From Balanoglossus misakiensis (taxonomy: Eukaryota; Animalia; Hemichordata): a stretch of DNA of 64,000 nucleotides. A model generated the notes under the pieces. It made no database searches. It was not told the DNA's origin and was given only the letters and a program-made list of their open reading frames with translations. This document shows, piece after piece, positions 1-52,904 of this stretch; position 1 is the first letter of the stretch; every line of letters begins with the position of its first letter. The stretch covers positions 3,214,925 through 3,278,924 of the forward strand of contig CM082596.2 of assembly GCA_040954595.2 (NCBI GenBank), given 5' to 3'. The position numbers and the translations under genes are program-made.

Positions 1-51
1 ACGAACACTGCCAATCAAGCGAGTAATAAGTCAACTGGGAGTAATGAGGAA

Positions 52-9076: not shown

Positions 9077-18981
<9,905 letters not shown>

Positions 18982-20674: not shown

Positions 20675-22610
20675 TTACTCCACAAATTCGTCAGGTTCAT
20701 CGAAGTATAAATCATATCTCAAAGTCGATTGCAAAACTGGAGTCAGTTCAATCCCATGTCGGACTCCCAGTTGGGCTATTTTTCTTTTTATTTCTTCATT
20801 CGCCTTTGTGAGAATATCCAACATATGAAACCTGCCACACAATCTCTCCAGAGCCTGGATAACTGTCCGCAAATAGCTAATTGAGCGCCCCCTAGAGCCA
20901 GTTTCACGTGGTAAGTGCGCATAGCCGAGGAGAAAATCAGCCTCGTTCGGGATGACGTCTATAGATGTCATCAGAGTTAGTAAGTCGTCATCTGCTGGTG
21001 TAACCGATGACGGTTCTCCGCGGGGCCCGTAATCGTCAATCGGACGTGTCTCTACCAGAAAGACCTTTGGTTTTCCGGCCAAATTTGTGGAATTCGCCTC
21101 GGCGAATATTTCCGTGAGATTCCGAAAACTGACGCCTACTCCATCCACGCCCATCAGTCGGCCAAAAGTTCCTTGGGAGAGGATGCATACGAGAAGGCAG
21201 TCGTGGAAAGAGTGGTCTTCGAGATTCAAGTTTCTCAACGAGCCGATCAGATCCAGCGATGTTAAGTTTTTCATCACTCTGACGCTGAAGCCCATGCTGG
21301 AAAGTATACTGCGAATAATGCCTGAAATAAATGAAAACAATGTAATGTACAAAACACGAGTTACATCTGCCCCCTCTCCATCTACATCTCCACATGCGCA
21401 TATTGAACAAAGTCTGCAAAAAGTCATGCTAAACGTATAATAGACTCGCAAAAATAACGCGATTTCATACACAGAACACGCCTGCTTATTTAGAACATGT
21501 ACATGAACTTTAATACACACTCAAACTGTGAGTACTTTAGGCCTTAGAGATGTACGTAGCCTGGGCCTCCGGGGATTGTGGAGTTAAAGGTCAATGACCT
21601 GACGTGACCTTACACCCCATAAACACCGTCACGTGATCACTTCTGCAGACATACACGTCCCTGCAAAGTTGCTTGTTTTCACATACAAGTCCGTGGTACT
21701 CACCTAATTCGGACCGGAAGACATCACCGCTAGACTTGGCATCAGATTCACTGTCATATTCGTAATTATAGACTATCACAGCCGCGCCACACGGATGGCT
21801 GTCCATCGTATAGCACGGAACTTGGGAACCGGACTGCCATTCTCGCATCTCCATTCTCCCGTTCTTCGTCCGAGCTGAGTCGACCGTCCGTTCCAGTTTT
21901 TGGATCGCTGGAATCCCCTTCTGTATCGCGTCTTGATACTCCGTGATAAGCAAGTTCTCTTCGAAGTGGACATCTTTCAAGCCGCCCAAGTTACTGCACA
22001 GAGAAGCAGGTAAGATCCTCAAACGATTTTCTTCCACGCGAAGTTCTTCTAGCCCTTTCATTTCCCCCAGCGTGTACGGGAGCCAGTCCAACTTATTGTT
22101 GTTCAGCCACAATACCTTCAGGTTCTTCATTTTTCCAATTCCCCTCGGTAAACTGGTTAGTCCGTTGTTGCTCAGGAATAGCTTTTCCAGCCCTTGCATG
22201 TCGGTGCTCAGCAGGCTGTCGGGGAATTCTGTGAACTTGTTGTCTGATACGTCCAGGTAACGGAGTTTTGATAACCGACCTATCGAAGCTGGTAGCGTCT
22301 TCAGCCTATTGGTCCCCAAGTAAAGCCTCACCAGTTCCCCCAGTCCCGAAACGACGTCGGGAAATTCCTCAAAGTGATTGTTTTCCAAGAATAACCATCT
22401 CAGTTTGTCTAGTTTGGATACGTCACTGGGAAGTGATTTTAAGCGATTGACGTTCAAGTTCATCCACTGTAGTTCTGTCAGGGTGCACACCTGTAGTGGT
22501 AGGCTTGTGAGGTTACGGTAATTCAGATCCACGCGGAGATCGTACGCTTTTCCCCGGTAAGGGTTGATGTTCAGAGCCGTCAGTTCTCGCTCTATCTTAG
22601 CCTTGGTCAT
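20675..22610 (-). CDS. L1: LRR protein (9 repeats) fused to a catalytically inactive caspase-like (peptidase C14) domain, ~517 aa, 2 exons
   Basis: Exons 22610-21704 and 21321-20675, separated by a GT-AG phase-1 intron; total length is divisible by 3. LRRs follow LxxLxLxxNxLxxLP. Caspase motifs YTMDSHPCGAAVIVYN, MGFSV, DCLLVCILSQG, LAGKPKVFLVETR, IPNEADFLLGYA and STLRYDLYF are present. Confidence 0.88.
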
Positions 22611-23726
22611 CTTTGGGTCGGATCGAAGAGGAAGGGTGCAGTGAAATCGCGAGATCAAATGCGACTAAAACATTCAATGAGAAATAACATTTGCGCTTTT
22701 AGTCTTTGTCAATCGGACACCTGTAGGAGCCTAAACTCGTGTACGTGCTCTGAATCAACAAAGCATCTCTATTAGCCTATCGATTATTGCAGCGTTGTGG
22801 TCCATTCAAATTCGCGACGTCTTCTCAAACTATTCAAAATTCTTAACAATTGAACGAGTTCGTTTCTTTGCAGTTTCCCCACATTCATGGTGGTAACAGA
22901 AGGATTCTGTCTTGTAAATCTCTGTATTTCTCAAAAAAGCCCAACAATATCACAGACGGAAACGTACATTGAGAGTAGAGATACAGGTTTCAGTGATCAT
23001 TCTCTGACAGACCCTACCTCTTTGCTTGCACGTTTATAAAATGGTGTCCCTCCCGATCAAAGCGGGAATCGTTGTTTTCAAGCACAGTATCTTTGTACGC
23101 GAGTTTCTTACTGTTCATCAGCATGCCATCTGTACGTTTCAGGGAGCGACTGTAATGACTATTCCAGGAAAGAGACAGCGAGCAAACAATATGTATACGT
23201 AGCCATATCTACTTAAAAACCAAGGAGCGCATGCGTTTGAATATTGACAACTTTTAATTCTGCTGAGGCATAGTTATGTAATAGGTCTAAAAGACTAAAG
23301 GGCTCCAACACTGACAGATCTGAGAAAATGAAATATCACATATTCAGTTCCTGTTGTACTAAGGTCATTTTAGGAGAAGCGCTTCTGACTATGGTACCCC
23401 GTGACAGACGTAACATGTAAACTTTGCGTATTTAAAACGTCAGGCAACGTAAATAGACTGTGCACGGCCTAATACATGTATTAGAACTGTATACTGTTTG
23501 GTGTCTTAATCTTGGTAAATACTAGTTCATTTAATTCTCCGTGTAAATGTGCGCGTCTCAACTTTCCGTTGCCAGGACAAACACCACTCCACTGTAAGTT
23601 CATGTTCATTTCCGCTTGAATCCTGAATGAGTGAGAGAAAATACCAAAAGTTTATATAATTTTACTTTTGGTCACTACAGACAGGGTAAACTCGAGTTTT
23701 GATGACATGTTCATTGTTCTGTTTAA

Positions 23727-25805
23727 TTATTTTAAAAAGAGATAAATGCTTAACTTAAACAAAATTAATTTAACGCATTGTGTCTCGGACCCACCTCTGG
23801 CGGACGACGGCTGGAAGACGTACATTGCGTACAGGGTCATAAGGAAGTTGTCGTTCATGTACGCCTGTATATGGTCCTTGTGGAGTGAAATTTGTTCTTC
23901 AGAGAGACAGATATCCTGGTTCATTAGGTCTTCCATCTTTCCCCACGCCTTGGGGAAAGTTTTCTCAGTGTAACTCGTGGGCCGCGGTTGGATGAGCGGC
24001 AAAACCCTGGCGTTTGAACTCAAAGTGATGCCAAGTTTTTCTGTAGGAAAATGAAGATCATGAGATACTATAGATTTCTTGAAATTGTGCGCTAAGATGA
24101 CACAAATTTACTGAAATGAAGATTTCCGGGTTTTCAGTCGTGATAACTGGTGAGCCGGCTTTTGTGCTGTTCGTATAAAAGCTCTTGGAAAAACATGGCC
24201 ACCTATTTCACCCACAAAACTTCCGCCAACTTCTAGGCCAATAGACCAAAAATCGCCAATCTCATGTGTTTCACTCTCGTATACCAATCCAATCTTAGAA
24301 ACATGCCAACCCCCTACCCGTTTTCCCGGGTAAAAGTTTTTCCTCATAATTTGAGAAACGTGTAGTATGATAACAATTATAATGTCAGTCTTTTTGACAT
24401 CTGTCGAGCTAATCACTTTCGGTTATAAAATAACCAAAGTACACCCACCCAACTGCCGTGTCAAATGTATGCCTATCCTGTCCTCGTTATCGATCACCTT
24501 GGCAAAACAGTCCTCGCAGTGACAGAGGAGAATGACTCTGTCGAATTTTGGAAACCGGTTGAACCACAGCATCCGGGCTATTTTGACACAGTAAAGATTG
24601 AACATGTTGTCGACCCCGTAGCTTCTCAGCGTCTTGGCTTGGAGGGCGTCCTCCGCCGTATGCGACCCCGCCCCTTCGCAGAGTTGCAAGGTGGGGAACC
24701 CGTTGACGAAATACGTCTGGATGCTGGCGAGCTCGCTCTGTCTGCTGCTGTCTGCGGAAAATAAAGGCCTGGACACTTCCACGGTGAAGTGTCGATCCCA
24801 CTGGATTACCCGGTTCGCCAGGAACGGGTTGCAGTGGAGATCTTCCTTCGCGTCACCTCTCTGTCCGATAACTAGGACGTTTGAGTCTCGCCCTGTCCGC
24901 AGCGTTCCCCACGGACTCGGTATCAGCGGCAATTTCATAAGATAGTCCTCAATACAGTCTACCTGGTCCGAGTTGAATTCTTCAAATACGGAAAATATCC
25001 GACGATCCTTGGCCAGTTTCAAGGCCCACTTATCTCCGAATTTCCACTGTTTTAGCCAAATGTCGGCGATGACCTTGTCTTTCATATGTCTGGATTTTCG
25101 GTCACCGTATATTACGATCAGTATTGAACCTGAAATATTAAATTTGTGGGTTAAAGGTCGTGTAGAGAGCAGTGGGAGACAGAGAACATTTTTATTTTAA
25201 TTTTAATTTTAAGCAATCATCCTTCTATGACCACCAACTTAATATGCCCTGTCTTTGTCAGGCCCTTTGCACTTGCTTCGGGGAATGCAAAACAAGTTTT
25301 TCTGATTGCAGTAGGCAAATACGATAAATTACCAGAGCTCGATAGGTTTGGTATTTCCGTCATGGCGAGACAAGACGGAAGTAAAACGATGGATTTTCTT
25401 GTGGATGGGGCAAATGATTCGGCAGAAGTGTGACCAGACATTTTTTGTGTCTAATCTGCCTCTGGTTTGAATGACAGGGAGTATACCTTTTGGCTTGGTC
25501 GATGTCCGATGCAACATGTCTAGCTCCTGCCTGTGGTCGATACTTCTGTCACGTCTCTCGGGTCTCAGACAGACCCGGCTTTGCCTGGCGTCGATGACAA
25601 CGACCGCTGTGGACGTGGCGTACCTGGCCAGCGTTGTTGCGCGCTGTTTCTCGTCCGCGGCTCGGAAGCTATCTACCGTTGTCATGCCGTTCAAGTTCTC
25701 GTTTCCTTCGACCACCGCTTCCAGCAAAGCTTTCACGTTTTCTTCGGCGGCTTTCTGGAAGGATTTCAGTTTCGCAAACACGAAAATTCGGTGTCTTTCC
25801 GCCAT
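23727..25805 (-). CDS. A1: uncharacterised protein with a TIR-like N-terminal domain and a putative degenerate P-loop GTPase domain, ~437 aa, 3 exons
   Basis: Exons 25805-25487, 25129-24449 and 24040-23727 (GT-AG, both introns phase 1, frame preserved). It is a clear paralog of A2 with the same intron positions: VVVIDARQSRVCL, IDHRxELDML, TSTKPKG|SIL.VIYGD, LWFNRFPKFD, KLGI.LS.NARVLPL. The exact 3' end is uncertain, and the domain names are inferred. Confidence 0.8.
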
Positions 25806-26995
25806 TCTTTGAGTGTGTACGTCTCTTCTACCCTCTAGCGTAGACCCTGGGTTTCTACGTAGAACCCGGATCGTGTCACACACACACTCACTGTTCCAAG
25901 ACGAACTGAAACCGTTTGCTTATTTTAGTCTGGTAACTAGTTGGACATTGAATTCCTGTCAAAGTTTACAGCACAAGCATATACGCATAAACGCTTTCTC
26001 TTGAAGAGCACATTAAATCATATATCGCCTTCTGTGACTTGTGTCATTAGAAAAAATTAATCAGGTACGTGCTGCCTCCCGTAACCATAGACATGACAGA
26101 ATTAACATGCAGCTTTAGGCTGCCGGACAGATTCCAATAAATCATATGGAACAATAATTGATCATTGGTTGATAACCATAACAGTTGTTTTTGGTATAGG
26201 CGCAAACAACGCCTTCTTATCTGCCAAGCGAAATAACTGCAAGGCACTTGAAACGCCGTTCATTTCTGTGTAACCATGCATGTATGTACATTTTCTGTAA
26301 GGAGAATCAGCTTTCTGTCAACGACACGATAAGAACATTTTATCATATTAATCATATATTGACTCTTGCTGTAAATAATATTTTCGCAACCCGACCTTAT
26401 TGATTGACATATTTCTATAGTAAACGTTCATTACGCTATCTGAAGGAAAACTTTCTTTCCGAGTCTACGAACTGCCTGTATGTCCGCCTGTAAAATAGAA
26501 CCCCTATAGGGTGACATCTTCACCTCGGTTTACCGCATGAATAGGTTCAAGCCCCTGGGTCCATGCACACAATAAAGCAACCAGGTCAAAAAAGTAGTCG
26601 CTATACAGCTGACATATCTTTGCCCGTTAGAGAGAGCTATAGTTAATCGAAACATTAAAAACTTTGCTTTACAGTCAAGTAAAAAAGAAATACTTTGAAA
26701 ATACACCTCGCTGAAACACCCCATGTCAGAAACCTATATCGGACCTTCTAGGTTACTTTAAAGATATCATATTTTTGACGTCACGAGATATTTTGGGCCA
26801 AGATACCAGTGGCAAATACAATTCCCGAGCATTTGGACTATGGACGATTACTGATAGTTTAACAATCACTGGGTAAATGTTGGCTGGAGTGGAACTTTGG
26901 TCGCATTAAGTGGCCTGCTTCTCGCACAAAAGGACTGTGTTTAGCTAAATATAACGTATGGGTCAATTTTCCACTGCACCGCACCTTGATGATCG

Positions 26996-27005
26996 GGGGA
27001 TTTCC
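26996..27005 (+). promoter_or_regulatory. Candidate NF-kB (Rel) site in the A1/B1 divergent intergenic region
   Basis: GGGGATTTCC matches GGGRNWYYCC and lies 75 bp upstream of the first B1 ATG. This is a motif match only. Confidence 0.4.
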
Positions 27006-27079
27006 TTGTCTAATTCGAGGTGATTAGATCCTGTTCTATTCATGGTTAGACGCGGTTGCGGACTCGCGATATTTTAAAC

Positions 27080-29439
27080 ATGAGTCGTCACAGTGCTCCA
27101 GTGCTACCAGCGAAGATGAGCGAATCAGGGATATACGTGACGATGAGGGGGTTCCACGCAGCGGGTTCGGGACTGCCCATGTACGTGCGCTACGCCAGGG
27201 GCGACCCAGTTGCGATTCGCGTCGATTGCCACGAGGACGATACCATACACGACCTGGCCAAGAAGCTGATCCTCCGCTCGAAGGATTTCGGGCTGGACCT
27301 GGCCGGGATCAGGCTCAGGGAAGGCAACGTGGCCGTATACATACTCGGGAAAGACGGCGTCGTGCTCCCGGGGAGAGACAAGCTGTCGCCGAGGAAGCTT
27401 CTTAAAGAAGTACAAGAGTACGACTTGGAATTTGAAACAGGTGAGAATAGTGTTGTATCATCATTACACGGACAGACACTTTATAAACATTTTACAGCAA
27501 AGCATTTCTGTGTTCAACATTTCACATATACTGGCCACTGACAAAAATCTGAGGGGGAGGGGCAAACATGACAAAACAAGTACAGTATGTCCGTTTATTC
27601 TTGTGCAAACTTTTCTGATACATACATACTGGTATGAACTGTAATTATTTCCGTGTGTGCGCACTGAAACCTATGCATCTCTTGCTGTTTACAGATTTAT
27701 GCGATGTGGTCGTCACCCACGCCGAGACCAGCGCCGTCTTCCCGTGCATCAAGACAGAGACGTTCGGTGACCTGGCGCGGAAGATAGAGACCAGAATTGC
27801 GGCTTTCAACTTCCAGGAGACGTATTTGATTGAACTGAGGGGGCAGCTCAAGACGGGCAAGTTGAGAATTTCAGAATATTCCGCCGTTGGCCGCAAGAGT
27901 AAAGTGATCAGCCTGACAAGAAGGATCGGGGATGTGGGCGACAGGAAGTTTTCTTTCTTCGTAGAGCAACCGAAGAAAGCCATTACTTGTGGTAAGTTGG
28001 TCACCACCAGTTCGAATCAAAATGATCAGCCTGGATGCATTTGCGGGTGTCCAGAATGTAAAATAATGTCAACCCATTGAATTTCGGTCGGAAGATATTT
28101 ATAGTGTCTTTATATAACTTGACAAAGGAAATACAAATAACTGAAAAAAAAATCTAAGTGAGGGGGCGAGTTAGTCTTGTTTCAACCGGTCACATAAGCC
28201 TTTAACCCCCTCCCCCAATAAATGACACGTCATTTACCGAAATTGCATTCTTTATTGCAGCTGATATCAAGGAAAACCTGTGTGGGCAAAACGTAGTTTT
28301 CTTTGGTCCCCCTGGCAACGGTAAATCATCGACGATAAACACATTTGCCAAGGTAAGCTACTAAGTATTTCCGCATATGATCTCAGAATTCGTCACCTTC
28401 GGTCGGACTTTTTAGCGACGCGTGGGGGCGCGCAACAGCAGACTCAGGGAAAACGTGAATATGGTGTTGATATTGTATGGATCGTGTTGAAATACCATTA
28501 TATGTTTATAATTGACGCCTTTGTCATATAGAAATATTCATATGGGAGATACTACATACTGTATACTCTCGAGTCCATTAGCTGAAATTGGATAAATTCA
28601 ATGCCTGTCTTGGCAGACTTTCCAGAAGTTGACGATATGTGAATTCTTCGAAATGTCATGCCTCGTAATAATCCGATTTTTTGCCTTTCTGGCTTTGTTT
28701 TAGGCTTTAGGTGGAGTCTATCGCCCTCTGGCAAATACCTATCAATTACGCGGCCCTGGCACTAAAGTATTCAAACCGTACACATTCACAGTCGAGGAGA
28801 AATCGTTCTCTCTCTGCGACGTGCCCGGTGCGGCTTTCCAAACCAGTGACGATTATGACCCCACCAAATTCATCCAAAGGATTCTCGACGGCAAACTGCC
28901 CGCCGAAAAGCCCCTGGACTACAAGCACAAGTTCTACAAGCGCGGTTTTGGAAAAGCCCATTGCATCGTGTACATCCACAAATGGGACGCAGAGTTGGAC
29001 GAACTTCACAGGTTTTTAGTCGATGAGGCCGCTGTACGAGGTGAGATGTTTTAGGATAATTTGGGGCTGTGTGGTTTTTATGCAAAACGCAAATTGAAAT
29101 ACGAAGACTTTTATCTAAGGATGAAAATGATTTCATGCCTCATCGTCTTTTTCCATAGGAAGCGGTATTCCAGTGGTTGTCATAGTGACTCATATCGACC
29201 TCGCCCCAGACGACCCCGACCTTATCGCCGAGAAATGCGATCAGCTGGCCGAGATCATGGGTATTGACGTCGCAAATGTGTTCACCGTATCGAACTTTGA
29301 CCACGAGGCATCACACGAAGACCAACTGAGGGATGCGCATGCTCTGCAGTTGCTCCACAAGATCCTGGCGTCGGCGAAGTCTTTCTGTGACAGAGGAAAG
29401 GTCAAAGTGACCGCAAAGGTCAGAGCGGCCGATAAATGA
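27080..29439 (+). CDS. B1: IFI44-like P-loop GTPase with two N-terminal ubiquitin-like domains, ~455 aa, 5 exons
   Basis: Exons 27080 (or 27116)-27440, 27695-27991, 28261-28352, 28704-29040 and 29159-29439 (GT-AG; phases 1,1,0,1). Motifs: G1 GPPGNGKSS, G3 LCDVPG, AHCIVYI, G4-like VTHID. The C-terminal VSNFDHE...RDAHALQLLHKILASAKSF resembles the IFI44 tail VSNY..E...D..IL.AL..ML..A..F. Confidence 0.85.
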
Positions 29440-31029
29440 CCCGCGTGCTGTCACCGTAGCGACAGCTGAAACAGATAGAGACTGACACCATATAGAAAAA
29501 GGGGTGTTTTCTACCTGGATGTGCTTACAGGTACCCGAGAACGAGTCTTGACCACTACGCCCCCGGACTCGGTCAGTTCTCGGGTACCTCAGTATGGATG
29601 TGGTGATCACTTAGAACCCTTTTCCTAAATGTGTGGACATTGTACATTAACATTTTCATTCATTTACAACACACGCATGGCGATTTTTTATCTATTGCAA
29701 CAGGTTACACTAGGTCAGATACCACGTGATAAACTAGCAGAGCGAGATAATGATGGCCACGAGTACTTTGACAAATAGTTCACTTAACAAGCAAACACGT
29801 TTGATTGATGGACTGTTGCATGTTATGACCTATTGCATGGGTCGTTCAATTCCATCCAGTACGGGTACACCTCGCTTTAGACCAATCAGTACTCGTAATC
29901 CTGTATTTTTGTACATAGCAGCTTTTACCAAAGAAGATAGACAGTACGGTATTTAAGAAACATTGATTTGCGGTATCCTTTAATAAAATGAGTTTTGCAT
30001 CTGTCGTTTGTGTGGGGCTGACATGATTTGTACTGTTTGAACGGCCTGCAGGGACGTATATTTTCCTGCATGTTGTTACGTCTGCGTCGATAAGTGTAGC
30101 ACAGTCTCATATATCGTGTATCATATGCTGCTGCTGAGATATGTCCGTTATCATCATGTCCACGAGTTGCTTGGCAACTGGTCACGTGACAGTCGCAGTC
30201 TCCAGTCGAATCTCCCGGCGATGTCGTTTATTGACAAGATTCGATGAGTACATTGTCGGCTTCTCCCATAAAATTTATATTTCAACAGTAAAATGATAAC
30301 ATTTATGTTCAAAATACATGTACACGAATATGCATGCGTTAATGTCATGCGGCTGTTTTGCATTCCGGTACTTTGCGATGTAAAAACACCTGCAAAGCGA
30401 AACTGGGCAACAATATTGACATGCTTGATTAATTGGGTTAGTATGAAATAATTGAACCAAGCTTTTGTGCCATGGCCGGCCGTCTAATAAGAGAGAAACA
30501 AAAGACTATTGCTTTTGTTCAGTTTCACAAATTCCTAAATTACACAGAATAATCAGACGCCGAGTTTTAGGCTCAATAAGACACACATATCTGGTCTTGG
30601 TTAACTGAATTATTTATTCGCCTTTCGGTTCACTGGTTCCATCTCATGCCTTCTTGGAAGACGCACGTTCATTGCTGCTGCCGCGCATCTGACAAACCTA
30701 CGGTTGCCATGGACACATTTTCTTTGGAGTGATGCCAAAAGTGGTTAATACCAACACCGCACACGCTAAATTTTGTATTATTTAAATGACATACTGTATA
30801 GTAAAGTAAAGGGCAGCCACCATGCTATCCACAGTCGTGAAGGCACGCTGATATTTATATGCGCACTGTGGTCCATTTTTAGAGAGCGAAAATAGAACGA
30901 GTTCGCATTCTTTACGGTGGCTGCTGATCTAAATTTAAAACAGGGTCATTATCACACGCTGTAAAACAAAGAAAACATACAGAAAAGTCCACAATTATTG
31001 TCATGATGATAATATTCACAGAATGACCA

Positions 31030-31737
31030 TCATTTCCCGCTGAGGTACTGCTTTATCGCGGCCGCTCCGTTCCTACACACATCCATCGGGGGGTTCTCCA
31101 TCGGGTTGCCGTCCACCATGATCTTCTTCAGCTTGGGGAGTTTCGTTATGGCGCTCGGCAGCTCGGAGATGTTGTTGTCCTGCGCCCAGATCTCTTCCAG
31201 TTGCGGCATGCTGGCGATGCAGTCGGGAAGGGCCGTCAGCTGGTTGTCGTTCACGACCAAGACCTTGAGGCACCGCAGGCTGGCGAGGTTCTCCGGCAGC
31301 TCCGTGAGTTTGTTGTGGCGCATGTAAAGCTCCTCGATTTCGGAGCCGCTCAGCGCCTCCGGGAATTCCTCGAATTCGTTGCTGTCCAGCCAGAGCTCAC
31401 GGAGGTTCAGCAAACGGGAGATGTTCCGCGGCAGTGACCTCAGCCGGTTTCCCCGCAGGTCCAACACCCTCAGCTCGCGCAACTCACAGACGACTTCTGG
31501 TATCTCCTCCAGACCGTTCTCGCTGAACGTGAGGCTCTCCAGCCGCTTGAGATGCACGACATCATTCGGCACGTCCACAATGTTGTTTCCCTTTAAACTG
31601 AGGCCCATTAAATTCCTCTGTCCGTAGACTGCCTTCGGGATGACTGTGAGCCGCGAGTTGTCCAGGTCGACACACACGCCGAGGTCTCCCTGGTTGTTGA
31701 TGAACGGCTCAAAGAACAGCTTGTGTCCATCAGACAT
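31030..31737 (-). CDS. L2: intracellular LRR-only protein (9 repeats plus C-cap), 235 aa, single coding exon; paralog of the L1 LRR region
   Basis: ORF of LxxLxLxxNxLxxLP repeats ending in GNPMENPPMDVCRNGAAAIKQYL. There is an in-frame stop 11 codons upstream of the ATG, GC-rich codon usage, and no signal peptide or transmembrane segment. Confidence 0.9.
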   Translation of the reverse strand: MSDGHKLFFEPFINNQGDLGVCVDLDNSRLTVIPKAVYGQRNLMGLSLKGNNIVDVPNDVVHLKRLESLTFSENGLEEIPEVVCELRELRVLDLRGNRLRSLPRNISRLLNLRELWLDSNEFEEFPEALSGSEIEELYMRHNKLTELPENLASLRCLKVLVVNDNQLTALPDCIASMPQLEEIWAQDNNISELPSAITKLPKLKKIMVDGNPMENPPMDVCRNGAAAIKQYLSGK

Positions 31738-33380
31738 TTTGAGCTGATTTTCTCCTCCAAGCCCGTTTTATGATTGATAGAGCGCGTTGTTCTGGCTCTC
31801 TCCAGCACCTGTTGGTGACGATGTGCGCACAAAATAATAACGAGCCTCTTGCTTGAAGTTGAAACCAACCGATGTCCTGGATGCGATGATGTATTCCTGA
31901 CAAGTTGGGTCTTCTCGGAGATCCACGTTGCAAATGCTGTTCTCGCACGTCTTATCAGCGCTCAAATTATCGCGTCACCAAAATCAGCATAAAATTGTGT
32001 CCCGTACTCTAGAAGGTGTGGTCATGATATAAAAGTCATTATTTTGTGCTCCGACATCTCCACTCTTTAAAAAAAAACGCCTGATATATATCCCAACACG
32101 ATGTCACTTTCACTTGTCGGTTTCACGCGCAGTCTCACAAACGTCTAAATGCTGCACACAAATTCGGTTTCAACCCCAGCGCTTGAACTTTGCGACACAG
32201 ACAGATAATATCAGGCAGAGTCCGACACTGCTGACACATTTATGGGATTGATGATGTGTAACACGCGGAGGCCTCGCAAACTGACCCCAACCCGATCAGA
32301 GTTATGTTAATATGTCAGCCAACAAACGCTAAACCGTTAATTCAATGACCTCCTAATGGATGACCGAGCACGTATACGTGTTAATGGTCCAATGGAATTG
32401 TAGGAAATGAAATTTGTAAATGTGGTCCGTTCTGACAAAATTGACGGCTGTGATTCTAATATTTCGAGAAGTTCATGGTGCCATTTTAATCATTTCCCCA
32501 TCAAATCGAAAATAAACATACTCGATGTGAAAGGGACTCAAATGATACGGGCACGAACGTATTACATGTACACCTTCTATGAAACCGCGATTTTCCAATT
32601 ATTAAATGTTTGAAAACGACAGTGTAATCTCACTAATGAATATTTTAGTAAGTATTCGTGCATGTACTTATACCGGCCTCAGTATTACTCTATTACACTA
32701 CTTACTAGACCTGATGGTATCTCGACAGGTATGGTTACACGCTCCTGCGCGGGGAACATGCGCATTGTATGATGTCAGAAAGCCACAACATATTATGGAG
32801 TCGTTTACATGTTTCCATAGAAACGTACAGCAAATTAATGATGGAAGATGTAGGAGCAAAGTGAGTATTTCTTTTACGACACATTAATTTAGTTTTATGA
32901 CATGAGTAATCTCATTCGGAACCAAGTCGTTTTTCTGCGGATATTTTTAATTTTTATATCCCATGGCATGACGAAAAATTCTTACGAGATTCACGAGCTT
33001 TTCCGCTTAGTTTTTATATCAGTGCAGGACGTTATTATATATTAGCTGGAATATGTAGCCAAAACATCTGTACCACCAGAATGCGGAAACTTGTAAATTG
33101 TGGATAGTCGTCCATCGATGTGAATTGAATTGTGATTGCAGTCGTTTCGCATATACCTGTACAACATAAATAAGCTGTCAGTAATACATGTAACGGCCTC
33201 GTTGATCCATGTATGTTCATGATGTTATACCTGTATCTTGCAGTAATTAGTTATTCAATTATTCATGTGACGTAATAGTACTTACCTTCAATTGGTTGAT
33301 CTTAATTATATGCAAACCACCTGGAAGTTTCATTTGACCAATGAACACAAGCTAATCTGGCACTATGATGTAGTTGCTGA

Positions 33381-33414
33381 TATAAAAGGACATTGTGCAT
33401 AAAATTGGTCAGTT
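33381..33414 (+). promoter_or_regulatory. Candidate TATA + initiator core promoter for A2
   Basis: TATAAAAG at 33381 and TCAGTT at 33409-33414, with the A at +30 from the TATA box. A possible 5'UTR donor (ag|gttagt) follows at ~33475. Confidence 0.5.
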
Positions 33415-33693
33415 CACCTCTGTAGCCAGACCGGCCACACACGTTGGAACTGACATGTATTTGTTCCATTTCAGGTTAGTTTCCTTGTACCTTATTATCT
33501 GTTGCTTGAAGCTTTGTATTTTGGTGCATTCTACCGACTCATTTCAGCACAAGTAATTGGTGTCTTGAACTTGCGTCAATTTTCCAATTGTATTTCTGTA
33601 TTTTTCACTTGCATGAATTTTGGTGTATTCTGTTGGAGGTGAACTCCCATACATGTGTGTAATTTAGCAGTTCACCTCTGTAGCCAGACCGGC
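33410..33693. repeat. 26-bp exact direct repeat upstream of A2
   Basis: CAGTTCACCTCTGTAGCCAGACCGGC at 33410-33435 and 33668-33693. Confidence 0.85.
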
Positions 33694-33960
33694 ATAACAT
33701 ACTGTATATGGCAATAACCTCAATAATGTTAGAAGTGAATGATGACACCACGATATGCAGTCTATTCCCTTCAATGCAAGTCTGATCTTTCTTCAATGTT
33801 TGTCGCTGATGGCGCCTCATGTGCCTGTGTACGCAGGGGTTGCATAGGGCCGTTTGTTGATAGACATGTTAACGATGGCCAATCTTCGGTCATCTCGGGA
33901 CGATGACAATAGCGCCACCGTATAAACCACAGTTAACTTCTTACAAAGCCGGACTCCGAA

Positions 33961-35774
33961 ATGGGGGATGTGCAATGCGTACTTGTTTTCGCTAAGCTCG
34001 TTTCTTTTCAAAAAGCGGCAAAACGAGTTCGTTCTCTCCTCGAACAAGTGGTCGAGGATGACGACCAACTGAACGGAAAGGTGATTGTCAAGAAATATAA
34101 AGGCGGAGACAAGTGGCCCACCGATGACTTCGCTACCACCACGGTCGTCGTCGTAATCGACGCCAGACAAAGTCGTGTTTGTCTCGTCCAATCGAGGCGA
34201 GACAGCAGTATTGACCACAGGGCAGAATTGGACATGCTTTATAAGACATCCACAAAACCAAAAGGTAAATGTTTAAATACACAGATATTTTTATAGCAAA
34301 GTTTTCGATCTGCAGCTTTATTATCTGGCCAGATAGCCCAAACTTTTGATTGCGCGTGTGCTGCAATTTCTAAATTATTTTAAGTGCAGTGTTTGTATGT
34401 ATTCGATCTCGAAGGGTGTTGCTATCAACGACCTTTGATTTTATGTCATCGCCCCTTTGCTTTTTCTGTTGTACTAGCAGCGTGCTTTTAGTATTAACTG
34501 TTGATTTTGAAAAATACAACACAGCTTTTTATTTTATTTTATTTTATTTTTATCAAAGGTTCAATTTTGGTTGTTATATACGGAGATAGCCAATCTGAAA
34601 ATATGAGTGACGACAAGCTGGTCGCCGACAAGTGGATTCAAACTTGGAAATTCAATGACAAAGTGGCGCAGACTCTCGTTCAGCGCAGTAGACTATTTTC
34701 CATATCGGACAATTTTAACGCAAAACAGGTGGCAGTCATTGTGGACTATTTGTACAAGTTACCACTGATTCCGATTCATGCCCCGGACTCCAACGTTCTG
34801 GTCATCGGAAAGAGAGACCCGCTGACGGAAGAAGCTGCAGAACTCCGCCGCGACCCGTTTCTCACCGATCACATCGTTCAGCACGAGCGTCAGTTTACCG
34901 TCCAGGAATCGAAGTACATCTCGCTCGTTCACGGACAATGTGACGACGCAAACGGCCACCTGAGAACATACTTCGTCGACGACCTCGCAACGCCGAAGGT
35001 CTGCGATCTACCTGACGGACAAGAGATTAATTTGCTCACCACTAAAGACTTTAAGGACTACGGAATTGATAACATGATGGATTTTCACATTGTCCAGGTG
35101 CCTCGTGTGCTCTGGTTCAACCGATTTCCAAAATTCGACCAAGTTCTACTGGTACCTCACTGTGGCGTCTGTTTCTGTAGACTGACCGCGGAACAAGATC
35201 GCATTGGACAGCACCTCAAGTCAGCACTAAGTAGGTATAACAAACGTCCCGAATGTTGTAACTTTGAAAATTAAGAATGTTATTAGCCATAAACTTTTAT
35301 CCACGATTAACCCGAAGATGACGAATTCTTAAAGGAAGCTCGTGCTTTTTTATAGCCGAGTACAGTACAAAAATAGGCCATAGGCTAAAGTAGACTTCTA
35401 AGTCGCCCTACTTATCAATGTTTATTGAAATAATTCATTCAGCTATTATCGTTAGCCATTAGGCCATCACTAACACGATTGTCAATTTATTCTCAGGTAA
35501 ACTTGGCATTCAGCTGAGCCCCAACGCCAGGGTGCTACCATTAATGACAACTGGCTGTCAAGAGCCCTCAGTCAGAACGAAGGCTTTGGCATTTGTAGAC
35601 GACGCAATTGAAAAGGATGCAAATCTGACTGACGAGTCCAAAACCGCTCTCAAAAGACAACTTGGGTGTTTTAGCGAGGACGACAGTTTTATCTGGGACT
35701 TGTATACGATGCATATGTACAACTTCCAGCCAGGTCAGTTGAATATTCATCGGCTTTCATATACGAAACACTAG
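33961..35774 (+). CDS. A2: paralog of A1 (TIR-like plus putative degenerate GTPase), ~417 aa, 3 exons
   Basis: Exons 33961-34264, 34559-35230 and 35497-35774 (GT-AG, phases 1,1). Colinear with A1 along its whole length. Confidence 0.82.
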
Positions 35775-37113
35775 TTTTTTCAAACCCGACATGTCCGAAT
35801 ACGAGAGACTTGAACAAAGTACTCTGTACACGTCTGCATTGGTAGAAACCTTTAATCCTTGCAAAATTGTTAACATTTTTCTCTGACCAACTCTTTAAAC
35901 TGCTGAGAAACGTCAACCGCAAAGTGTTTTTCATTATGAGACGCTGGTAATTTTGTCTTTCAGGACTAAAACCAAAAGAGCATCGACTGGACACTCAATC
36001 AGCCTCTACAGATCAAAAGGGACATGGACAGAGAAAAGAAGAATCAAATCTGCACAGTGAAGATTGTTCACTACCTATGGCATAGTGGAGGGACCCCGGT
36101 TGAGCAGACTTACAGACGTACACGCCCTATTGAATAAACGAACGTGTTTACCTTAGAACTAACATTCTACGACATAGGAAGTTTCTTAACGAGATTTTAA
36201 CGACAGCATTAAACGACATCAAAAATGAGTTGGGGATCTTTATCGGGGATTTTAGAATGGCCGAGATGTGCAGGGTCGAACTGTTGCAGGTTTTTATTAA
36301 TGACTGTGTGTTACCATTGTTATGGACTCTATCTAGGACTGAATTTATGCCTCGAAGAGCGTCGGCGCACCTAATGTATTTTGACTCAGCGTAATAAAGT
36401 ATGGGCGCTTCACCATTGGTAAGCACCAACGCCCAAAATTCTACATCGCCTTGTCCGTCTTTGTCTCTCTCTCTCTGCTTTTGGGTCTGTACTTAATACT
36501 CTCGCAAAAACATTGCAATCGACGTGTGTTAAACCAATGTGCATTAAAAATACTTCACTATATGTATCCGTCATTCAAAATATTTATGTTTCAGTTGATT
36601 GGTTATTCGTTTATTTATTTTTGCTTGGCTTTGATATTTGTATTTACTAGTCAATGTTATTATACATTTACTATACATAAAGACAAAAAAGACATAAAAA
36701 TAAAACTCTGGTTTTTTTTTCTCTCCGATGTATTATGTTTGTGAAATTTCCATGGATATGAACTACAACACATATGTGTGTACACACTCTTTAAATGTCA
36801 TATATGTCAGTTAACGAATCAATCAATCAATCGAATAATTAAATAAGTGATATTTTCTTAGTACACTAGTCTAGAGAAATTAGCTACAAAGTCAAACCAT
36901 GCATGTGATTTCGGACGGGTTTACAAACGGTCACATTGAAAGTATTGTTATTTTTTTGAAGTTGGATTTTAGGATCCTCCTGTGTATGTATAATATAAAC
37001 CGTATAATACAATATAGGGGTAACAACCATGCTTAAGCTTGTTTATAAAATACAAGGCTGTGATTTAAGTTGATTTAATTATACGGCGGTTGGTGTCGCC
37101 ATCCTTTTACTTT

Positions 37114-38225
37114 TTAGTTGCAAGCAGCTTCTGTTTTGTCAGTTTCGACTGAGGACGCCCCTTTATTCATGTATACTTTTCCTGCATGAAGGATAACTTC
37201 GAGTATAGACAGAGCATTCTGCCTGCGATCGGGGTCCATGCCTGTAAAATCGTTGCGTTCTTGGTCAAGGTTGGATATGGTGAAAATGTTGGCGCGAGTC
37301 ACTGTAGTTGCTGCCGTAATGGCCTGGATTTTTTCCTCTATCTCGTCTTCTGTGCCTTCTGCTTGATCGATATGTGTGACGACAACAAAGACCTTTAAAC
37401 CACTTTCTGCAAGAAAACGTTAAACGTTATGGAAAAAAGTAACCGAAATTCACAGAGTGTGGAATATGTAGACGTGTAAATCTAGGAGTATTAGTTTAAA
37501 ACATTGACGTTTTTTAAAGTTTTAATTTTTGTCTGCTACGGCGTAACTTGAAAAAGAAGACTTACTTAATTTGTATACTTCACCCATGAGTGGATCTATC
37601 ATGCTGTCAACTTCTGCTGCCCACTTATGGATGAAAACTATTGCCGATGGTTTCTTAAAGCCACTTCTCAGCTTGAATGCAGACTCTTCACCGACAGGGC
37701 TCCTATTGGCAGGCAATCTTCCGTTCAGTATTCTCCGAATTGCTCTCCTGGTTCTCTCATCTGGATCGTTTCCTGGGGTTGTGATCGTTTGTTTACACGA
37801 ACCGGGAACATCACTCAGCCAGAACGGTTTATTATCTACAGTGACTTCGTATGGTTTGTAAACAGCTGAACCAACACCACCTTGCATATATGCTTGGGCT
37901 GGCCCCTGGATGCCAGTTACAGCCTAAAAATGCAAAGATGTATGGTGTAAAAACTTGTGGCAATCAAATAAGCTGAACAAAAGAGAACAAACAAACAAAC
38001 AGACGTACGTACATACATACATACATACATACATACATACATACATACATACATACATACATACATACATACATACATACATACATACATACATACATAC
38101 ATACATACATACATACATACATACATACATACATACATACATACATACATACATACATACATACATACATACATACATACATACATACATACATACATAC
38201 ATACATACATACATACATACATACA

Positions 38226-38256
<31 letters not shown>

Positions 38257-40887
38257 CCGAATTGTTTGTCCAATGTAGGCCTTATTCATACAAAAAAAAA
38301 GTGAATTCTAAATTACTCTATACAATGAATTGATTGTTGATGATTTCCCTGTTCCAGGGGCACCGAAGAAGACAGTATTCTGGCCACAAATGCAGTCCTT
38401 GATATCACCTGGAATTGAATCGGAGAAAATCATCTTGGGATATGGAAATGGTGTCGATATAAAAATGCCTCCATACATTCAAATATAACGACCGTCATCG
38501 ATTCGGAATTCTATTTACTTGAATTGTTGGGATTTGCTTGTAATCCGAATGTATTTTACAAGTTGTAGATCAACGTGAAGGTTCAGGAAATATAACTTAC
38601 TAATGGAAGTGGTTTTCCGAACTTTCTCGATCTCGAAAACAAACTTTTGGAGGCCGATATCTTCAATCGCTTTTGTAGAATCCAGATGGACGCTCTTTCC
38701 AGTAACTTTTGGGTATTCGTAAATTCTCATCTGACCTCCGTTTTTTATTTCATTCTGAAGGGATTTCATGTGATCCTCCGAAAAACGGAAGTCTGGCAGC
38801 CTTTTCAATATGTTTTTGGTCATTCCAAATACCGTCTCGTTTTTTCGGCATAGCATGGCGATGTTATTGTCACCGTGGATAATTTGCACTTGAAGTAAAT
38901 CTGCAAAAGAAGAATAGGTTCGAAGGAATGGAAATAATGTGGCGTTTTACATGAAATAACGCCAGTGATATTTTTATCAAACGTCATGATATTCACGTTA
39001 AACGTCATCAGTTTCTGCTGGGTCCTAGCCATAGCAATAAACGAAGCATGCCTGTATGCTACTTGTTGCATGCTTGGACCTGGCCTCGGACGGAACCTAG
39101 CTAAGAAATGATGAACAGGAAATTTAGGTAAAATGCTAACACATCATATTTTAGGTACTGATGGTTATTAAGGTTTAAGTTATTTATTTATTTATTTTGA
39201 CTGACCTCAAGTGGGGTCATTTAATAGAAAACATCTCCGCGTGACGGGGGCGATACTGATCGCGGACCCACCCACTGAGGGAAACTTCGCGACACGGAGG
39301 TTGTCGCGCAGTTCATAATAGTTTCAAAAATGGGCCCAACTCTTCCCAATGTCACAAAACAAAACATTTTGGGGTCAGTTTCGATTTAACTTCTTTTAAA
39401 CGTCCATACTTCAGCAAAATTTACGAATAAATTATAAAAATGCATCCGTGTTGTCGACTTGCACTTAATATCGACCGTCCCGTTCCGAAGTGCAAAATAC
39501 GAACAATTTCCATAATCAAAATTAAAGGTGTTTTTTGGATGTGCGAGACGGAGCAGACGGGCAGGGGATACTTTGTGCGACGTGTGTGCAACCATTTCCG
39601 CATATAGACAGTTAAAACCCTCACCATATCCCATTATCCGCGTCATGTGTACAAATTGATGATCGCGTATCTAACGTCAACATCATAAACATTAGGTGCA
39701 ATGATTGTAACGGGTGCTGCTAGGTTGAGTGCGAACACACCACTCAATCATTGCAGCTACATGAACATGGTCAAGTTGTTTACCAGGGCAATAAAATACC
39801 ACGGTCACTACACAAGAAAATCCGTTTAATACAGGACATAAAATGTATTGCTAGAGTTCAATTATGCAAACGTTAGAGAGATATTGTAACAATTAAGTTA
39901 TCACCCCGCACCCGAATCGATATCACCCCTTTGCTCTTCGTTGAGTGTATAGTCTGGTAGACGAATTTCCAAACTTTGATATTTTTCCTCACAAGGAAAA
40001 TTTTTCACGGCGTACGCGAAAGTAGTAACCTCGCGTCTTTTTGCTAAAACCATTCGCAGAAACCTCGTGACAACAAATGGTTGTCGCATATCATAGCGTT
40101 GTTTTCATCGGCGCGTACCAATGACAGTGGTGCAAGAAATAGGCATAATTTCTCCAGAGTGTAGCAGCTGTTATGCGACCACAACCACACTTGTTGCAAT
40201 ATCTCATATTGTTTTTCTGTCTCTCATGTGGTACATGTAATTTATTAATATAGTCACATATGCTTTATTTGTGGTAGAATTGTCTTTTCAGAGTGTCAGA
40301 TATCATGTCATCAGAGCCCTCTGAACTTCATAGCCCCAATGAATTCAGAATTATTGGGATCTCAGATTCCTGGTCTTGAAACCCTTAATTTTTCTGAGAT
40401 AACATGCATATACATGGATATTTACATGGATTTCAATTGAATGCATGGAGGCATGATCGAGTAATTTGGAAACTATGACTTGTGCTGAAACAAGATAATT
40501 GCAACAAGCAAAACTTCAAAGTGGCCTATAATGGGCAATACAGGGCTGCAGCAACAATGGCAAATACATGTACTCACCAATATCGAATTCCAATGAGAAT
40601 TTTTTTATCTCTTCCAGCGGAGTACGAGGATGAATTACTTCCTTTCTCGTACCATCATCCTGGACAGAATATATCGTGACATCGCCTGGACTGAGAGATG
40701 CATCGTCATGTAACTTTATCTTGAAATCTTCGGCCTTGTTTATTATCAATTCCGCTAGATTGTGTGTAACATCATTAAGAAGACAATTGACTTGGATTGG
40801 ATTCTTCGGTCCGTATTTATAACGTAGATACAGAGGTAAGCTTGGTGCTGCTAATTGTGGTAATTCTTGTTGAACGTTGTCAGCCAT
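37114..40887 (-). CDS. B2: paralog of B1 (tandem Ubl-like domains plus IFI44-like GTPase), ~450 aa, 5 exons
   Basis: Exons 40887-40578, 38900-38601, 38408-38317 (92 bp, same size as B1 exon 3), 37923-37566 and 37406-37114; phases match B1. Motifs: CGQNTVFFGAPGTGKSSTIN, KPYEV, LSDVPG, RILNGRLPA, IVFIHKW, VVTHID, IFTISNLD. Confidence 0.85.
38010..38253. repeat. (TACA)n tetranucleotide microsatellite in intron 3 of B2
   Basis: About 60 perfect TACA units, preceded by a short (AAAC)n run. Confidence 0.97.
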
Positions 40888-49882: not shown

Positions 49883-50994
49883 TTTAGAATGTCAGCCTTG
49901 CAGTTCAGCGATTGACGTGCTTGTAGTGATCGCCAGCTGACCTTGAATGAATTATTTCACAACATGACCCCTGTGTGACCTTGTATGTTTGTGCAAAGCA
50001 TCCATTCTCCAGTGAGTGTGGCCACACAGCTCTGCCATTATTTGCAACAGAGGGGATTTCTCTGTAAAACTATGAAGCAGCAGTACCTTGAATTCCACCA
50101 GAATTTTTTCATAGAAGATTTCTGTATAAATAACCCCACTTGATTACTGCAAACCCCGGCGTATTAGTGTGGCATAAGGGTGTATTGTTTTGACAGGCTT
50201 CAAAATATTGTATCTAAAAGTTTCAAAGCTAGGCGGTCGTAAGTGAGTCTGTGTGTCAATTTAATAAAAAGCCAAGGAAAACAAACTTCTGGTCGAGTTT
50301 GATCGCAATTTTCTATGAGAAGGAGAGCGTTGTCTTTGATGTCATAGCACAGATCGACTGTTTGGTCGGTAGACTCACAAATCGGTACGTTGGCATGTAG
50401 AAATAGGTGTTAATGTTTTTAGCAGATAGCAATTAGCATAACAACAAACGGTGGATGTTTATCACAGCTGTTTCAGCTATGTGTACACCGGTGCAAAACA
50501 GTTATTCTGGAGCGGGGATGTGTGTTATGGCAGCTTGATTAGACTGATATTTTGCATCCCCAGCTCAGATTACCGAAATGGAATCTTGATTAAGAGACTG
50601 TCATTTGCGAAAATGGGGGGTGTCTGTTTCCCTTGGGTTTGTTTACTTTTCTGTGACGCATTTCTCATCCACCCAAGTCCCAACCCCGCCCCCATCACCT
50701 AGGAAACTCATGAACTACATCCAGTAGTGATGTGATGGCAATGTGTCTTCAGACACATTGTACCTCCACCATAGATTGGTGCTTATAAATTGATGTCACT
50801 GACCTACTCAACATTATTACAAAATACCCAATAATAAAGTTTCTGTGCCGTTTAGCGGGTCTTCTCCCAGAATGCAACGCTAGAGATCTTTTGATTTGGG
50901 GATCTTGTACCTTCCTACCCCATATAATCAATGCAAAGTCCTGCATCTCTACTTTCAGGGGTATGGTTGTGTTGTCTGGAACAGGGTCGGTAAG

Positions 50995-52904
50995 ATGTGG
51001 TATGTGATGGCAAGGCTGCAGCAAAGCTACAGTCTGCAGGAGCGCCTGGTTCGCACCATTGCCGACTGGCGGGCGTACTCCACAGACGATGTGGAGGAGC
51101 TGTTGGACGAAGGGGCGGATGTCAACGGCGCCTCGGGCACTCTGCTACCGTTGCACTGTGCGTGCATGGTGAGCGACAGCAATGTTCTCAAGTTGCTGCT
51201 AGACAGGGGTGCTGCAGTAAGTATTGGTACCTAAGAATTTAAGGATAAGGCTTAAAGGGGAAGCTTACCCTCTGTTGTAATTGCACAAAGTTGTTTAATA
51301 GTCACGTGACAAATGCCAATTTCACTAACTTTCACTCGTGCACAGCAAAGTAATTTATCACCAATGATAAAAGACAAGAAGTGACAGAATTGACTTGTGG
51401 GTCGTCTGCTGCAGGGGCAAGTACATGTACAGTCACGTTGCTGTGTCAAGTCACACACACACATGAACTATGACATAACTATGGCAACAGATAATTTGGA
51501 GCCAGAGATCCCCCTCTAAAAACTGGAGATTGAAATAACACTGGACCGTACGCAAAGCGCAGTACTGCACGTCGACTGCAACACAAGTCGTGTACGTCAC
51601 TTCTAGTTGCATTTTAAACACACACAGTGCACGACTGAGATCTAATCCATAGGATATCTGACAATATAATGACAGGACTTTGGAAGGACTGTTGGTGAAC
51701 TATGTAGTGACCTTCCATATTGATGCCAGGTCCCACCCAACATATACATGTACATTAACCTCCTACTGCTTTGCATTCTGTTGTGTGACCTCCCTTTTGA
51801 GGGATTGCCTTGCGAGACAGAAAGAATCCTTTTTTTGTTTGCGGCTTGTAGTGTTCTGTTGTGTAGCTGTGAAAGTTCCAAGTGTAAAGCCAAAAATGGC
51901 AAAATGCATTTTTTTAAAATGCGAGAGGGATGACTATATGTATGTGTAATGAAACTCGCCAACCCTGACTGTCAGTGAATAACAGAAAGAGTGTACTAAC
52001 GGATAATGGAAAGAATGTACTAACACCAAGCTCTAGCGACAGCGCCCTCTAATGCCAATCGCGGAATCTATTGATCAGTTGTTTTTGTGTGCAGTGCAGT
52101 CTGTGTGTAATTCTATCTAATCTTAGGCAAATATAAGCTTCGGTAAAAGTTTAGTGAAGTTTAGAAAAAATCTAACTTGAAATTAATAAAATGTGGTGTG
52201 GACATAAGGTTTGATTTTTTGAAATTCAAGTTCAATCAAGTAAAACATGGAACTTTTTCAAACAGGTCAACGCTGTCGATGGCTATGAAAGAACTGCTTT
52301 GCATTATGCCGCGGAAAAAGATGACATTTGCACTGAGCTTCTCATACAACATGGTGCTGACCTGAACGCCCCCGACGGTAATCAGGACACTCCGCTGCAC
52401 TGGGCTTCGTTTAAGAACAATGTGAACAGCGTCAAGATTCTGCTGCGCCACCAGGCCGCGGTCAACCTCGTGGACTACAACAACGACACGGCGCTCAGCT
52501 GGGCTGCGCTGAAATGCAACCAGGAGAGCATTCAGTTGTTGCTAGATTACGGGGCGGACCCGTCCATCACGAATTATAACGGGATGTCGCCTATTTTACG
52601 GGCGGCCATCATGGCGGCCTCCGGACTAGATAGCCGGGACGTGGAGTCTGTCCGGTTGCTCGTCAAAGCGCTTGGCATGTTTGACATACGCAACGAGCAG
52701 GGCTGCCTGCCCAATGAAATCAAGCGAGACGCGCACCTTCACGACATGCTCATACAGTACTGCGAAAACGCCAGACCACTCAAGGAGCTGTGTCGCTTTG
52801 TTATACGTAGAAATCTCGGCCAGACTTATTTGCCTGAAGCTGTGACTAAACTGCCATTGCCTGCTGTGCTGCGGAGTTACCTACTGCTGCAAGAACAAAG
52901 ATGA
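50995..52904 (+). CDS. ASB8: Ankyrin repeat and SOCS box protein 8, ~286 aa, 2 coding exons
   Basis: Exons 50995-51216 and 52266-52904. MWYVMARLQQSYSLQERLVRTIA, GTLLPLHCACMVSD, RTALHYAAEKD, DTPLHWASFKNN and DYNNDTALSWAA match ASB8 as I recall it. C-terminal SOCS box: PLKELCRFVIRRNLG...LPLPAVLRSYLLL. Confidence 0.93.

Follow-up and report, generated by a model that had tools for sequence, protein, structure and literature searches.

A gene cluster of Balanoglossus misakiensis with a candidate pair of an IFI44-family GTPase and a putative partner from an apparently undescribed protein family

In humans, IFI44 acts via FKBP5 to dampen IKK signalling (PMC6712396). IFI44 homologues are also enriched in the antiviral cells of cnidarians, as seen in a coral and in a sea anemone (PMC13319465). 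In the mouse IRGs, an active immune GTPase of the GKS type (Irga6) is coupled via the G-domain to a GMS-type partner with an altered P-loop (Irgm1-3; PMC3042988). In amphioxus, leucine-rich repeats (LRRs) are joined directly to a caspase domain with an intact QACXG motif (PMC2575513), and cFLIP is a catalytically dead caspase (PMC8195603). Bacterial DO-GTPase/GAP1 conflict systems consist of a GTPase and a dedicated adjacent or fused partner, and often have membrane-anchored, caspase-type and inactive-enzyme components (PMC7159879). Here, a stretch of 64,000 nt from the genome of Balanoglossus misakiensis (the window) was analyzed, which contains a cluster of six genes from three families, i.e. 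L (LRR proteins, one of them with a caspase-type domain), A (proteins with two conserved domains) and B (proteins with a C-terminal GTPase domain).

The comparison with the known systems revealed similarities as well as differences. The C-terminal domain of B matches IFI44 and TLDc-IFI44 clusters, but B has two N-terminal repeats instead of a TLDc or an Ig domain, and it is paired with an unrelated family, whereas the partner of human IFI44 is FKBP5 (PMC6712396). The mouse IRGs resemble the A-B pair as a combination of an active GTPase with a P-loop-altered partner; in contrast to them, A is not a recognizable paralogue of B (HHalign 0.5%), its P-loop is wholly lost, it contains an extra conserved domain, and the coupling of A and B is inferred. 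L1 shares the direct LRR-caspase linkage with the amphioxus proteins, but both catalytic residues have been lost; it is dead like cFLIP, but contains LRRs and not DEDs. The bacterial GTPase systems are an analogy only, because the searches turned up no relative of A in bacteria and the animal genes have introns. No description of family A or of such a cluster was found in the literature searched, which included few subscription papers. The main text and one supplement of a Saccoglossus poly(I:C) study (PMC10210618) do not contain IFI44, GTPase or caspase, and its other data files may list them.

We tentatively propose, at somewhat less than an even chance, that the core of the cluster is a working immune pair, in which B would be a nucleotide switch and A its partner, in analogy to the mouse IRGs. 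Besides the linkage in P. flava, the head-to-head arrangement of A1 and B1, the matching duplication ages of A and B, the strong conservation of domain 1 of A and the absence of a P-loop from family A, the evidence comes from A-family genes of two other species. Four genes with a C-terminal B-like GTPase tail were picked by reading the 36 relatives of the family A query, namely P0042 and P0043 from Ptychodera flava and P0046 and P0056/P0072 from Glandiceps talaboti. When 39 sequences were ranked with the B profile, the tailed proteins occupied the first three ranks and rank 7. The fused tails aligned with the GTPase of B over 198 columns (HHalign 96.9%, E-value 1.6e-10), and the score of 72.3 compares with values of at most 16.7 in 30 shuffles. 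The tails reached 0.12% with a bacterial G-domain profile, versus 97.4% for B itself. All four tails lack the P-loop and also the N-terminal repeats of B. In a quick tree of family A, from which P0069-P0071 were left out and in which the isoform P0072 stood in place of P0056, the tailed genes sit in one branch together with two tail-less members (Shimodaira-Hasegawa-like approximate likelihood ratio test, 91). As relatives fuse A to a dead B-type GTPase, A and B likely work together. By its sequence the fused tail is B-like, and it may have originated from B itself or from another IFI44-type gene. A complex prediction with the P. flava orthologues of A and B had a score of 0.00 in two runs, which were made without alignments and with an uncertain fold of the partner, and thus it is evidence neither way.

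In the proposed mechanism, B would act as a GTP switch, as predicted for an IFI44-family GTPase, and A is predicted to dock on the G-domain of B and to pass the signal onward through its highly conserved domain 1. A would in all cases be coupled with a G-domain of the IFI44 type, which would be in trans at this locus and in cis in the relatives with fused genes. The pair would act in innate immunity, comparable to the pairing of GMS-type with GKS-type IRGs in mouse, and this role is proposed because the IFI44 family has immune roles elsewhere. L1 would likely serve as a scaffold or decoy in the manner of cFLIP, with its LRRs as a binding surface, and its place next to the A-B pair would be older than the divergence from P. 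flava; its membership in an A-B complex is hypothetical.

The assignment of B to the IFI44-type GTPases, which had been part of an initial annotation of the window, was supported. B1 has the G1 motif GPPGNGKS, the G3 motif DVPG, and THID at the place of G4, and the respective motifs of B2 are GAPGTGKS, DVPG and THID. G1 (GxxGxGKS) and G3 (DVPG) are intact in B1, B2 and the P. flava orthologue P0002. The structural comparison was performed with the P. flava orthologue of B1 (XP_070570359, 64% identity), and query and targets were both predicted structures. Its GTPase domain matched IFI44/TLDc-IFI44 structure clusters with template modelling (TM) scores of 0.79-0.87 over 217-231 residues (feature score 0.95), and the rows named IFI44, IFI44-like or TLDc had TM scores of 0.82-0.87. 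As judged from these models, B is an IFI44-family GTPase. A TLD domain was not matched by Pfam in the B exons or in P0002, and TLDc is likewise missing in other IFI44-like clusters; B is therefore regarded as a variant and not as an IFI44 orthologue. The two N-terminal exons of B align as a repeat of each other. The repeats presumably resemble the beta-grasp pattern, and a beta-grasp fold is likely from the sequence; the best ubiquitin-like match of the N-terminus was UBL5, with a weak E-value of 0.89. The repeats had no Pfam match in the B exons or P0002, and a PDB sequence search with the N-terminus yielded nothing significant. A C-terminal di-glycine is absent, as the repeats are N-terminal and the second one ends without GG in B1, B2 and P0002, and therefore they are not ISG15-like modifiers.

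Family A was defined by a search of 1.84 billion representatives with E-values up to 0.001, which led to 37 representative proteins including the query. All 11 members with a species name are from acorn worms, six from P. flava and five from Glandiceps talaboti. Scans of 38 A members with Pfam, NCBIfam and PADLOC did not reveal a family that covers the shared region, and the domain scans did not detect an NLR-type domain. Relatives were found neither in metagenome contigs (one query) nor in prokaryote genomes (one query, and a further scan of five genomes). The best score in a structure-atlas search was 0.84 and thus below the threshold, and a PDB sequence search with A gave nothing significant. 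Family A appears to be undescribed and lineage-restricted. The P. flava orthologue of A1 is XP_070571198 (65% identity), and the fold of this orthologue was predicted with a predicted local distance difference test score (pLDDT) of 86 and a predicted TM score of 0.88. A C-terminal hydrophobic helix that resembles a membrane anchor is present in 13 of the 37 members, A1 and A2 not being among them. The A-family models P0057 and P0069 have C-terminal Kazal repeats or an LDL-receptor class A domain, and these extra domains are either true fusions or the result of merged gene models.

Conservation is much stronger in domain 1 of A (residues 1-180) than in domain 2, and domain 1 contains the near-invariant polar residues K12, D76, R78, R81, R89, D90, D94, H95, W96 and E98. 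The best rows in the fold comparison were P-loop GTPases (7zhf with Z 8.5, a root-mean-square deviation (rmsd) of 3.4 and 146 aligned residues; LRRK2 with Z 8.3; GIMAP7 with Z 8.0). The only TIR domain listed, that of TRAM, had a Z of 6.9 (rmsd 5.8, 131 aligned), and a Foldseek comparison with TIR-STING yielded an E-value of 3.8e-3. Profiles for comparison were built from 19 of 22 CAP12-type TIR, 25 of 30 TIR_2 and 27 of 30 G-domain loci after clipped loci had been dropped. The HHalign values of domain 1 were 0.10% for CAP12-type TIR, 0.37% for TIR_2 and 0.73% for the G-domain, and the TIR values were within the range of the shuffles; as a control, the CAP12-type TIR and TIR_2 profiles matched one another at 96.8%. 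Pfam TIR matches were absent from the 38 A members, animal TIR and SEFIR domains having been compared via Pfam only. The initial annotation had called A TIR-like, and this designation is not supported by these values. Domain 1 is best regarded as a new alpha/beta domain, whose polar patch is strongly conserved.

Domain 2, which had been annotated as a pseudo-GTPase, gave mixed results. Folded alone, it had a pLDDT of 82. In the Foldseek search the best E-value was 6.7e-4, and 42 of the 45 rows shown were G-domain or G-protein-type chains, some of them assigned by chain length. In the VIA whole-domain comparison the best rows were Rab11/Ypt32 (Z 4.9, rmsd 5.4, 154 aligned). Besides GTPases and helical fragments nothing stood out in the fold lists, and absence from these lists excludes nothing. 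The motif GxxxxGK[ST] was found in 0 of 38 A-family sequences, and there was no profile match to the G-domain. Hence, the loss of the P-loop and a weakly G-like fold stood, whereas a match at the profile level did not, and it is plausible, but not firm, that the modelled domain 2 is a pseudo-GTPase with a distorted G-domain-like fold. Two other origins were ruled out at the profile level, i.e. a derivation of domain 2 from IFI44 (HHalign 0.5% for A versus B) and an internal repeat of domains 1 and 2. Domain 2 also has a conserved Cys/His cluster (P0001 residues 261, 314, 315 and 318), which occurs in 28-32 of 38 rows of the alignment and may be a zinc site.

The gene order in the window is L1(-), A1(-), B1(+), L2(-), A2(+), B2(-), and the features are compiled in Table 1. 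All six spliced genes have open frames, and every intron of the six gene models built from the window is of the GT-AG type. The cluster is flanked by a gene with BRO1, ALIX-V and PTP domains on one side and by an M16C peptidase gene on the other side, which, from these architectures, we take to be PTPN23 and PITRM1, respectively. The annotated six intact genes between these two neighbours and their order L1-A1-B1 followed by L2-A2-B2 were borne out by the gene models, and so were the equal intron phases within the pairs (1,1 for A; 1,1,0,1 for B). The protein identities of the paralogues are 35% for L, 45% for A and 38% for B. RefSeq proteins of P. flava cover L1, A1 and B1 over the full length with 72, 65 and 64% identity, and thus the exon models of these three genes are independently supported. 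In A1 and A2 a phase-1 donor-like site is located right after the last conserved helix (23795 and 35733), and therefore the final few residues are uncertain. These sites share their phase with the start of the GTPase exon of B and hint at a short fourth exon. From the sequences, exon shuffling at the phase-1 site could have generated the A-B fusions.

Table 1. Features of the L/A/B cluster; positions refer to the 64,000-nt window.
Feature	Position	Strand	Exons and remarks
L1: 9-unit LRR and catalytically dead caspase, 517 aa	20675..22610	-	exons 22610-21704, 21321-20675
A1: family A member with a conserved alpha/beta domain 1 and a putative G-like domain 2 without P-loop, about 437 aa	23727..25805	-	exons 25805-25487, 25129-24449, 24040-23727; 3' end uncertain
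Common head-to-head spacer of A1/B1, 1,274 bp	25806..27079	.	NF-kB consensus match 26996-27005
B1: two N-terminal repeats (likely beta-grasp) and IFI44-family GTPase, 455 aa	27080..29439	+	exons 27080-27440, 27695-27991, 28261-28352, 28704-29040, 29159-29439
L2: single-exon LRR-only protein without caspase, 235 aa	31030..31737	-	
A2: paralogue of A1, about 417 aa	33961..35774	+	exons 33961-34264, 34559-35230, 35497-35774; a further exon may start at 35964, and the 3' end is uncertain
B2: paralogue of B1, 450 aa	37114..40887	-	exons 40887-40578, 38900-38601, 38408-38317, 37923-37566, 37406-37114

The spacer between A1 and B1 is likely a bidirectional promoter. The NF-kB site in it is a perfect consensus, 75 bases ahead of the start of B1. 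In the whole window the number of exact NF-kB matches was at chance (5 versus 4.96 expected), and exact matches to the interferon-stimulated response element (ISRE) were not above chance. One-mismatch ISREs were in excess, but dispersed over the whole window. Allele data were available from two DNA runs of one sample, which is possibly that of the assembly itself, and 40 of the 243 differences were listed, 31 of them coding. Among the listed alleles, the ratios of synonymous to non-synonymous differences were 17:2 for L1 and 8:4 for B1, and none of the 40 was in A1, L2, A2 or B2. The region between L2 and A2 contains a high-copy repeat (33220-33700) with a depth of 6,500-31,000 versus 10-220 in other bins, which is likely a transposon or satellite fragment, and intron 3 of B2 contains a long (TACA)n microsatellite (38017-38257). 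Outside of the cluster, a long trinucleotide repeat tract is present in an intron of the PTPN23-like gene (10517-10929), a gene with ankyrin repeats and a SOCS box is located head to head with the peptidase gene (50884-52901), and a C2H2 zinc-finger gene lies at the start of the window (1-2208).

The neighbourhood of the three families was found in part in P. flava, at the level of the chromosome. The orthologues of L1, A1 and B1 are all on one sequence of 44,037,996 bases, and those of L and B have the consecutive accessions XP_070570358 and XP_070570359, whereas the accession of A does not follow them. The other five named A members of P. flava are on a 40.3-Mb sequence (four) and on a 50.6-Mb sequence (one). 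Since most named members are on another chromosome, A can generally do without this locus. Family A appears to be clustered on one chromosome per species, with all five named members in G. talaboti and four of the six in P. flava, which suggests a main tandem array.

A duplication of the three genes as one unit, as initially annotated, was not supported. The strands are - - + in set 1 and - + - in set 2, and therefore at least two separate single-gene inversions would be needed; in addition, L2 lacks a caspase. In the quick tree, A1 is the sister of the P. flava protein (98) and A2 is outside of this pair (89), and therefore the duplication of A predates the split from P. flava. Orthologues of the set 2 genes were not found, and an orthologue of A2 is absent among the 37 representatives. 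The ratios of paralogue to orthologue distance were 2.14 for A (1.78-2.59), 2.47 for B (2.05-3.01) and 3.97 for L (3.01-5.42). The ratios of A and B overlap, but that of L does not overlap the interval of A. Judged from these sequence distances, the duplications of A and B are of similar age and fit one event. L is a poor fit to this event, for which rate differences could be the cause, and L2 is a looser companion of the A/B pair.

Results for the L genes were also heterogeneous. The caspase domain of L1 was matched by Pfam Peptidase_C14 (E-value 2.5e-19), and LRR_8 was matched as well. The closest caspase is caspase-8 (E-value 5.5e-19), and in the alignment with it SHG is replaced by SQG and QACQG by ETRPI, so that both catalytic residues are lost. 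The same losses (SQG and ETNPV) occurred in the P. flava orthologue (72% identity). By its sequence L1 is a pseudocaspase, and the sequence comparisons indicate that its dead active site is kept in both species under purifying selection. The annotation of L as LRR/pseudocaspase proteins therefore stood for L1 and not for L2, which consists of one exon with LRRs only; a second caspase exon was absent from the window. L1 and L2 had been described as aligning repeat for repeat. Both do have nine LRR units, the fifth of which is irregular, but in a comparison by hand the identity at non-consensus positions was 18/90 in register versus 11/70 at a two-repeat shift, and L1 and its true P. flava orthologue shared 67/90. 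From their repeats, L1 and L2 may be sisters. No fusion of L with A or B occurs among the 37 A-family representatives, and apart from the neighbourhood nothing was found that connects L with A or B.

Several observations weigh against a working A-B pair. The fusion partner is B-like, B being the IFI44-type sequence used for the comparison, and it may derive from another IFI44-type gene. A B-type tail is missing in 33 of the 37 A representatives, and the fused gene models are RefSeq predictions. The fold matches of A are middling, with a best Z of 8.5 for domain 1 and a best whole-domain Z of 4.9 for domain 2. Linkage on one chromosome is expected anyway among related hemichordates, the P. flava accession of A (XP_070571198) is not consecutive with those of L and B, and most named A-family genes are on another chromosome. 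Word-limited searches yielded no L1 or B orthologue outside of P. flava, and the head-to-head layout of A and B is not kept in set 2.

Three other explanations were considered. The genes could form a three-part unit kept by co-regulation, in which the LRRs of L1 sense, its dead caspase is a scaffold or decoy, B sets the threshold and domain 1 of A is the effector. The occurrence of the order L-A-B twice, the location of the three orthologues on one P. flava sequence with consecutive L and B accessions, and the dead active site of L1 kept in both species under purifying selection argue for such a unit, and catalytically dead domains abound in each of the genes, reminiscent of the bacterial GTPase-centred conflict systems (PMC7159879). 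However, L2 lacks the caspase, the L ratio of 3.97 (3.01-5.42) is outside the interval of A, the LRR register is barely better than a shifted one, the orientations differ between the sets, and L is not fused to A or B in any of the 37 A representatives, and we consider this three-part unit unlikely. Equally doubtful is its most far-reaching version, a defence island mostly made of dead enzymes, in which the LRR-pseudocaspase would sense or act as a decoy, the IFI44 GTPase would set the threshold and domain 1 of A would be the output via a new enzymatic or ligand-binding domain; family A would then represent the first G-domain partner dedicated to GTPases of the IFI44 type, in trans at this locus and fused in relatives.

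Alternatively, three fast-evolving lineage-specific families may have been copied locally in one permissive gap without acting together, and A may have no role in immunity. Such a chance neighbourhood would be in agreement with the large size of family A and its location mostly on another chromosome, with the different orientations and the different age of L, and with the common shuffling of immune-gene domains in invertebrate deuterostomes (PMC2575513, PMC8195603). Against it are the fused A and B-type domains of two species, which are encoded at a locus independent of this one, the matching duplication ages of A and B, and an L-B neighbourhood that was kept across about 30-35% protein divergence. 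We likewise regard it as improbable, to the same degree as the three-part unit. We have even less confidence in the possibility that A is a guard that monitors IFI44-type proteins attacked by pathogens, with B1 as the guarded protein and the fused dead B-type domain as an integrated decoy. This would have a parallel in the head-to-head NLR pairs of plants, and the missing P-loop in all four fused domains, the head-to-head arrangement of A1 and B1, and the combination of a constant domain 1 with variable domains 2 and tails are as expected for it; on the other hand, A has no NLR-type domain, the listed alleles indicate purifying and not diversifying selection, and no pathogen antagonist is known here.

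The working A-B pair, our preferred explanation, appears to follow a known design, i.e. a lineage-specific cluster in which an immune GTPase is combined with a dead partner, whereas family A and its tie to IFI44-type domains appear to be undescribed. So far it was seen in two species only, and the shuffling of immune domains is frequent in such animals. As an interferon-stimulated gene, IFI44 has been reported widely, and little mechanism has been attached to its GTP-binding domain. Family A, which is found beside an intact or fused to a dead IFI44-type GTPase, would offer a concrete and testable partner for it. If L1 belongs to the pair, the cluster would be a three-gene immune unit in an animal. 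The acorn worms, in which family A is expanded, are a key outgroup of the chordates.

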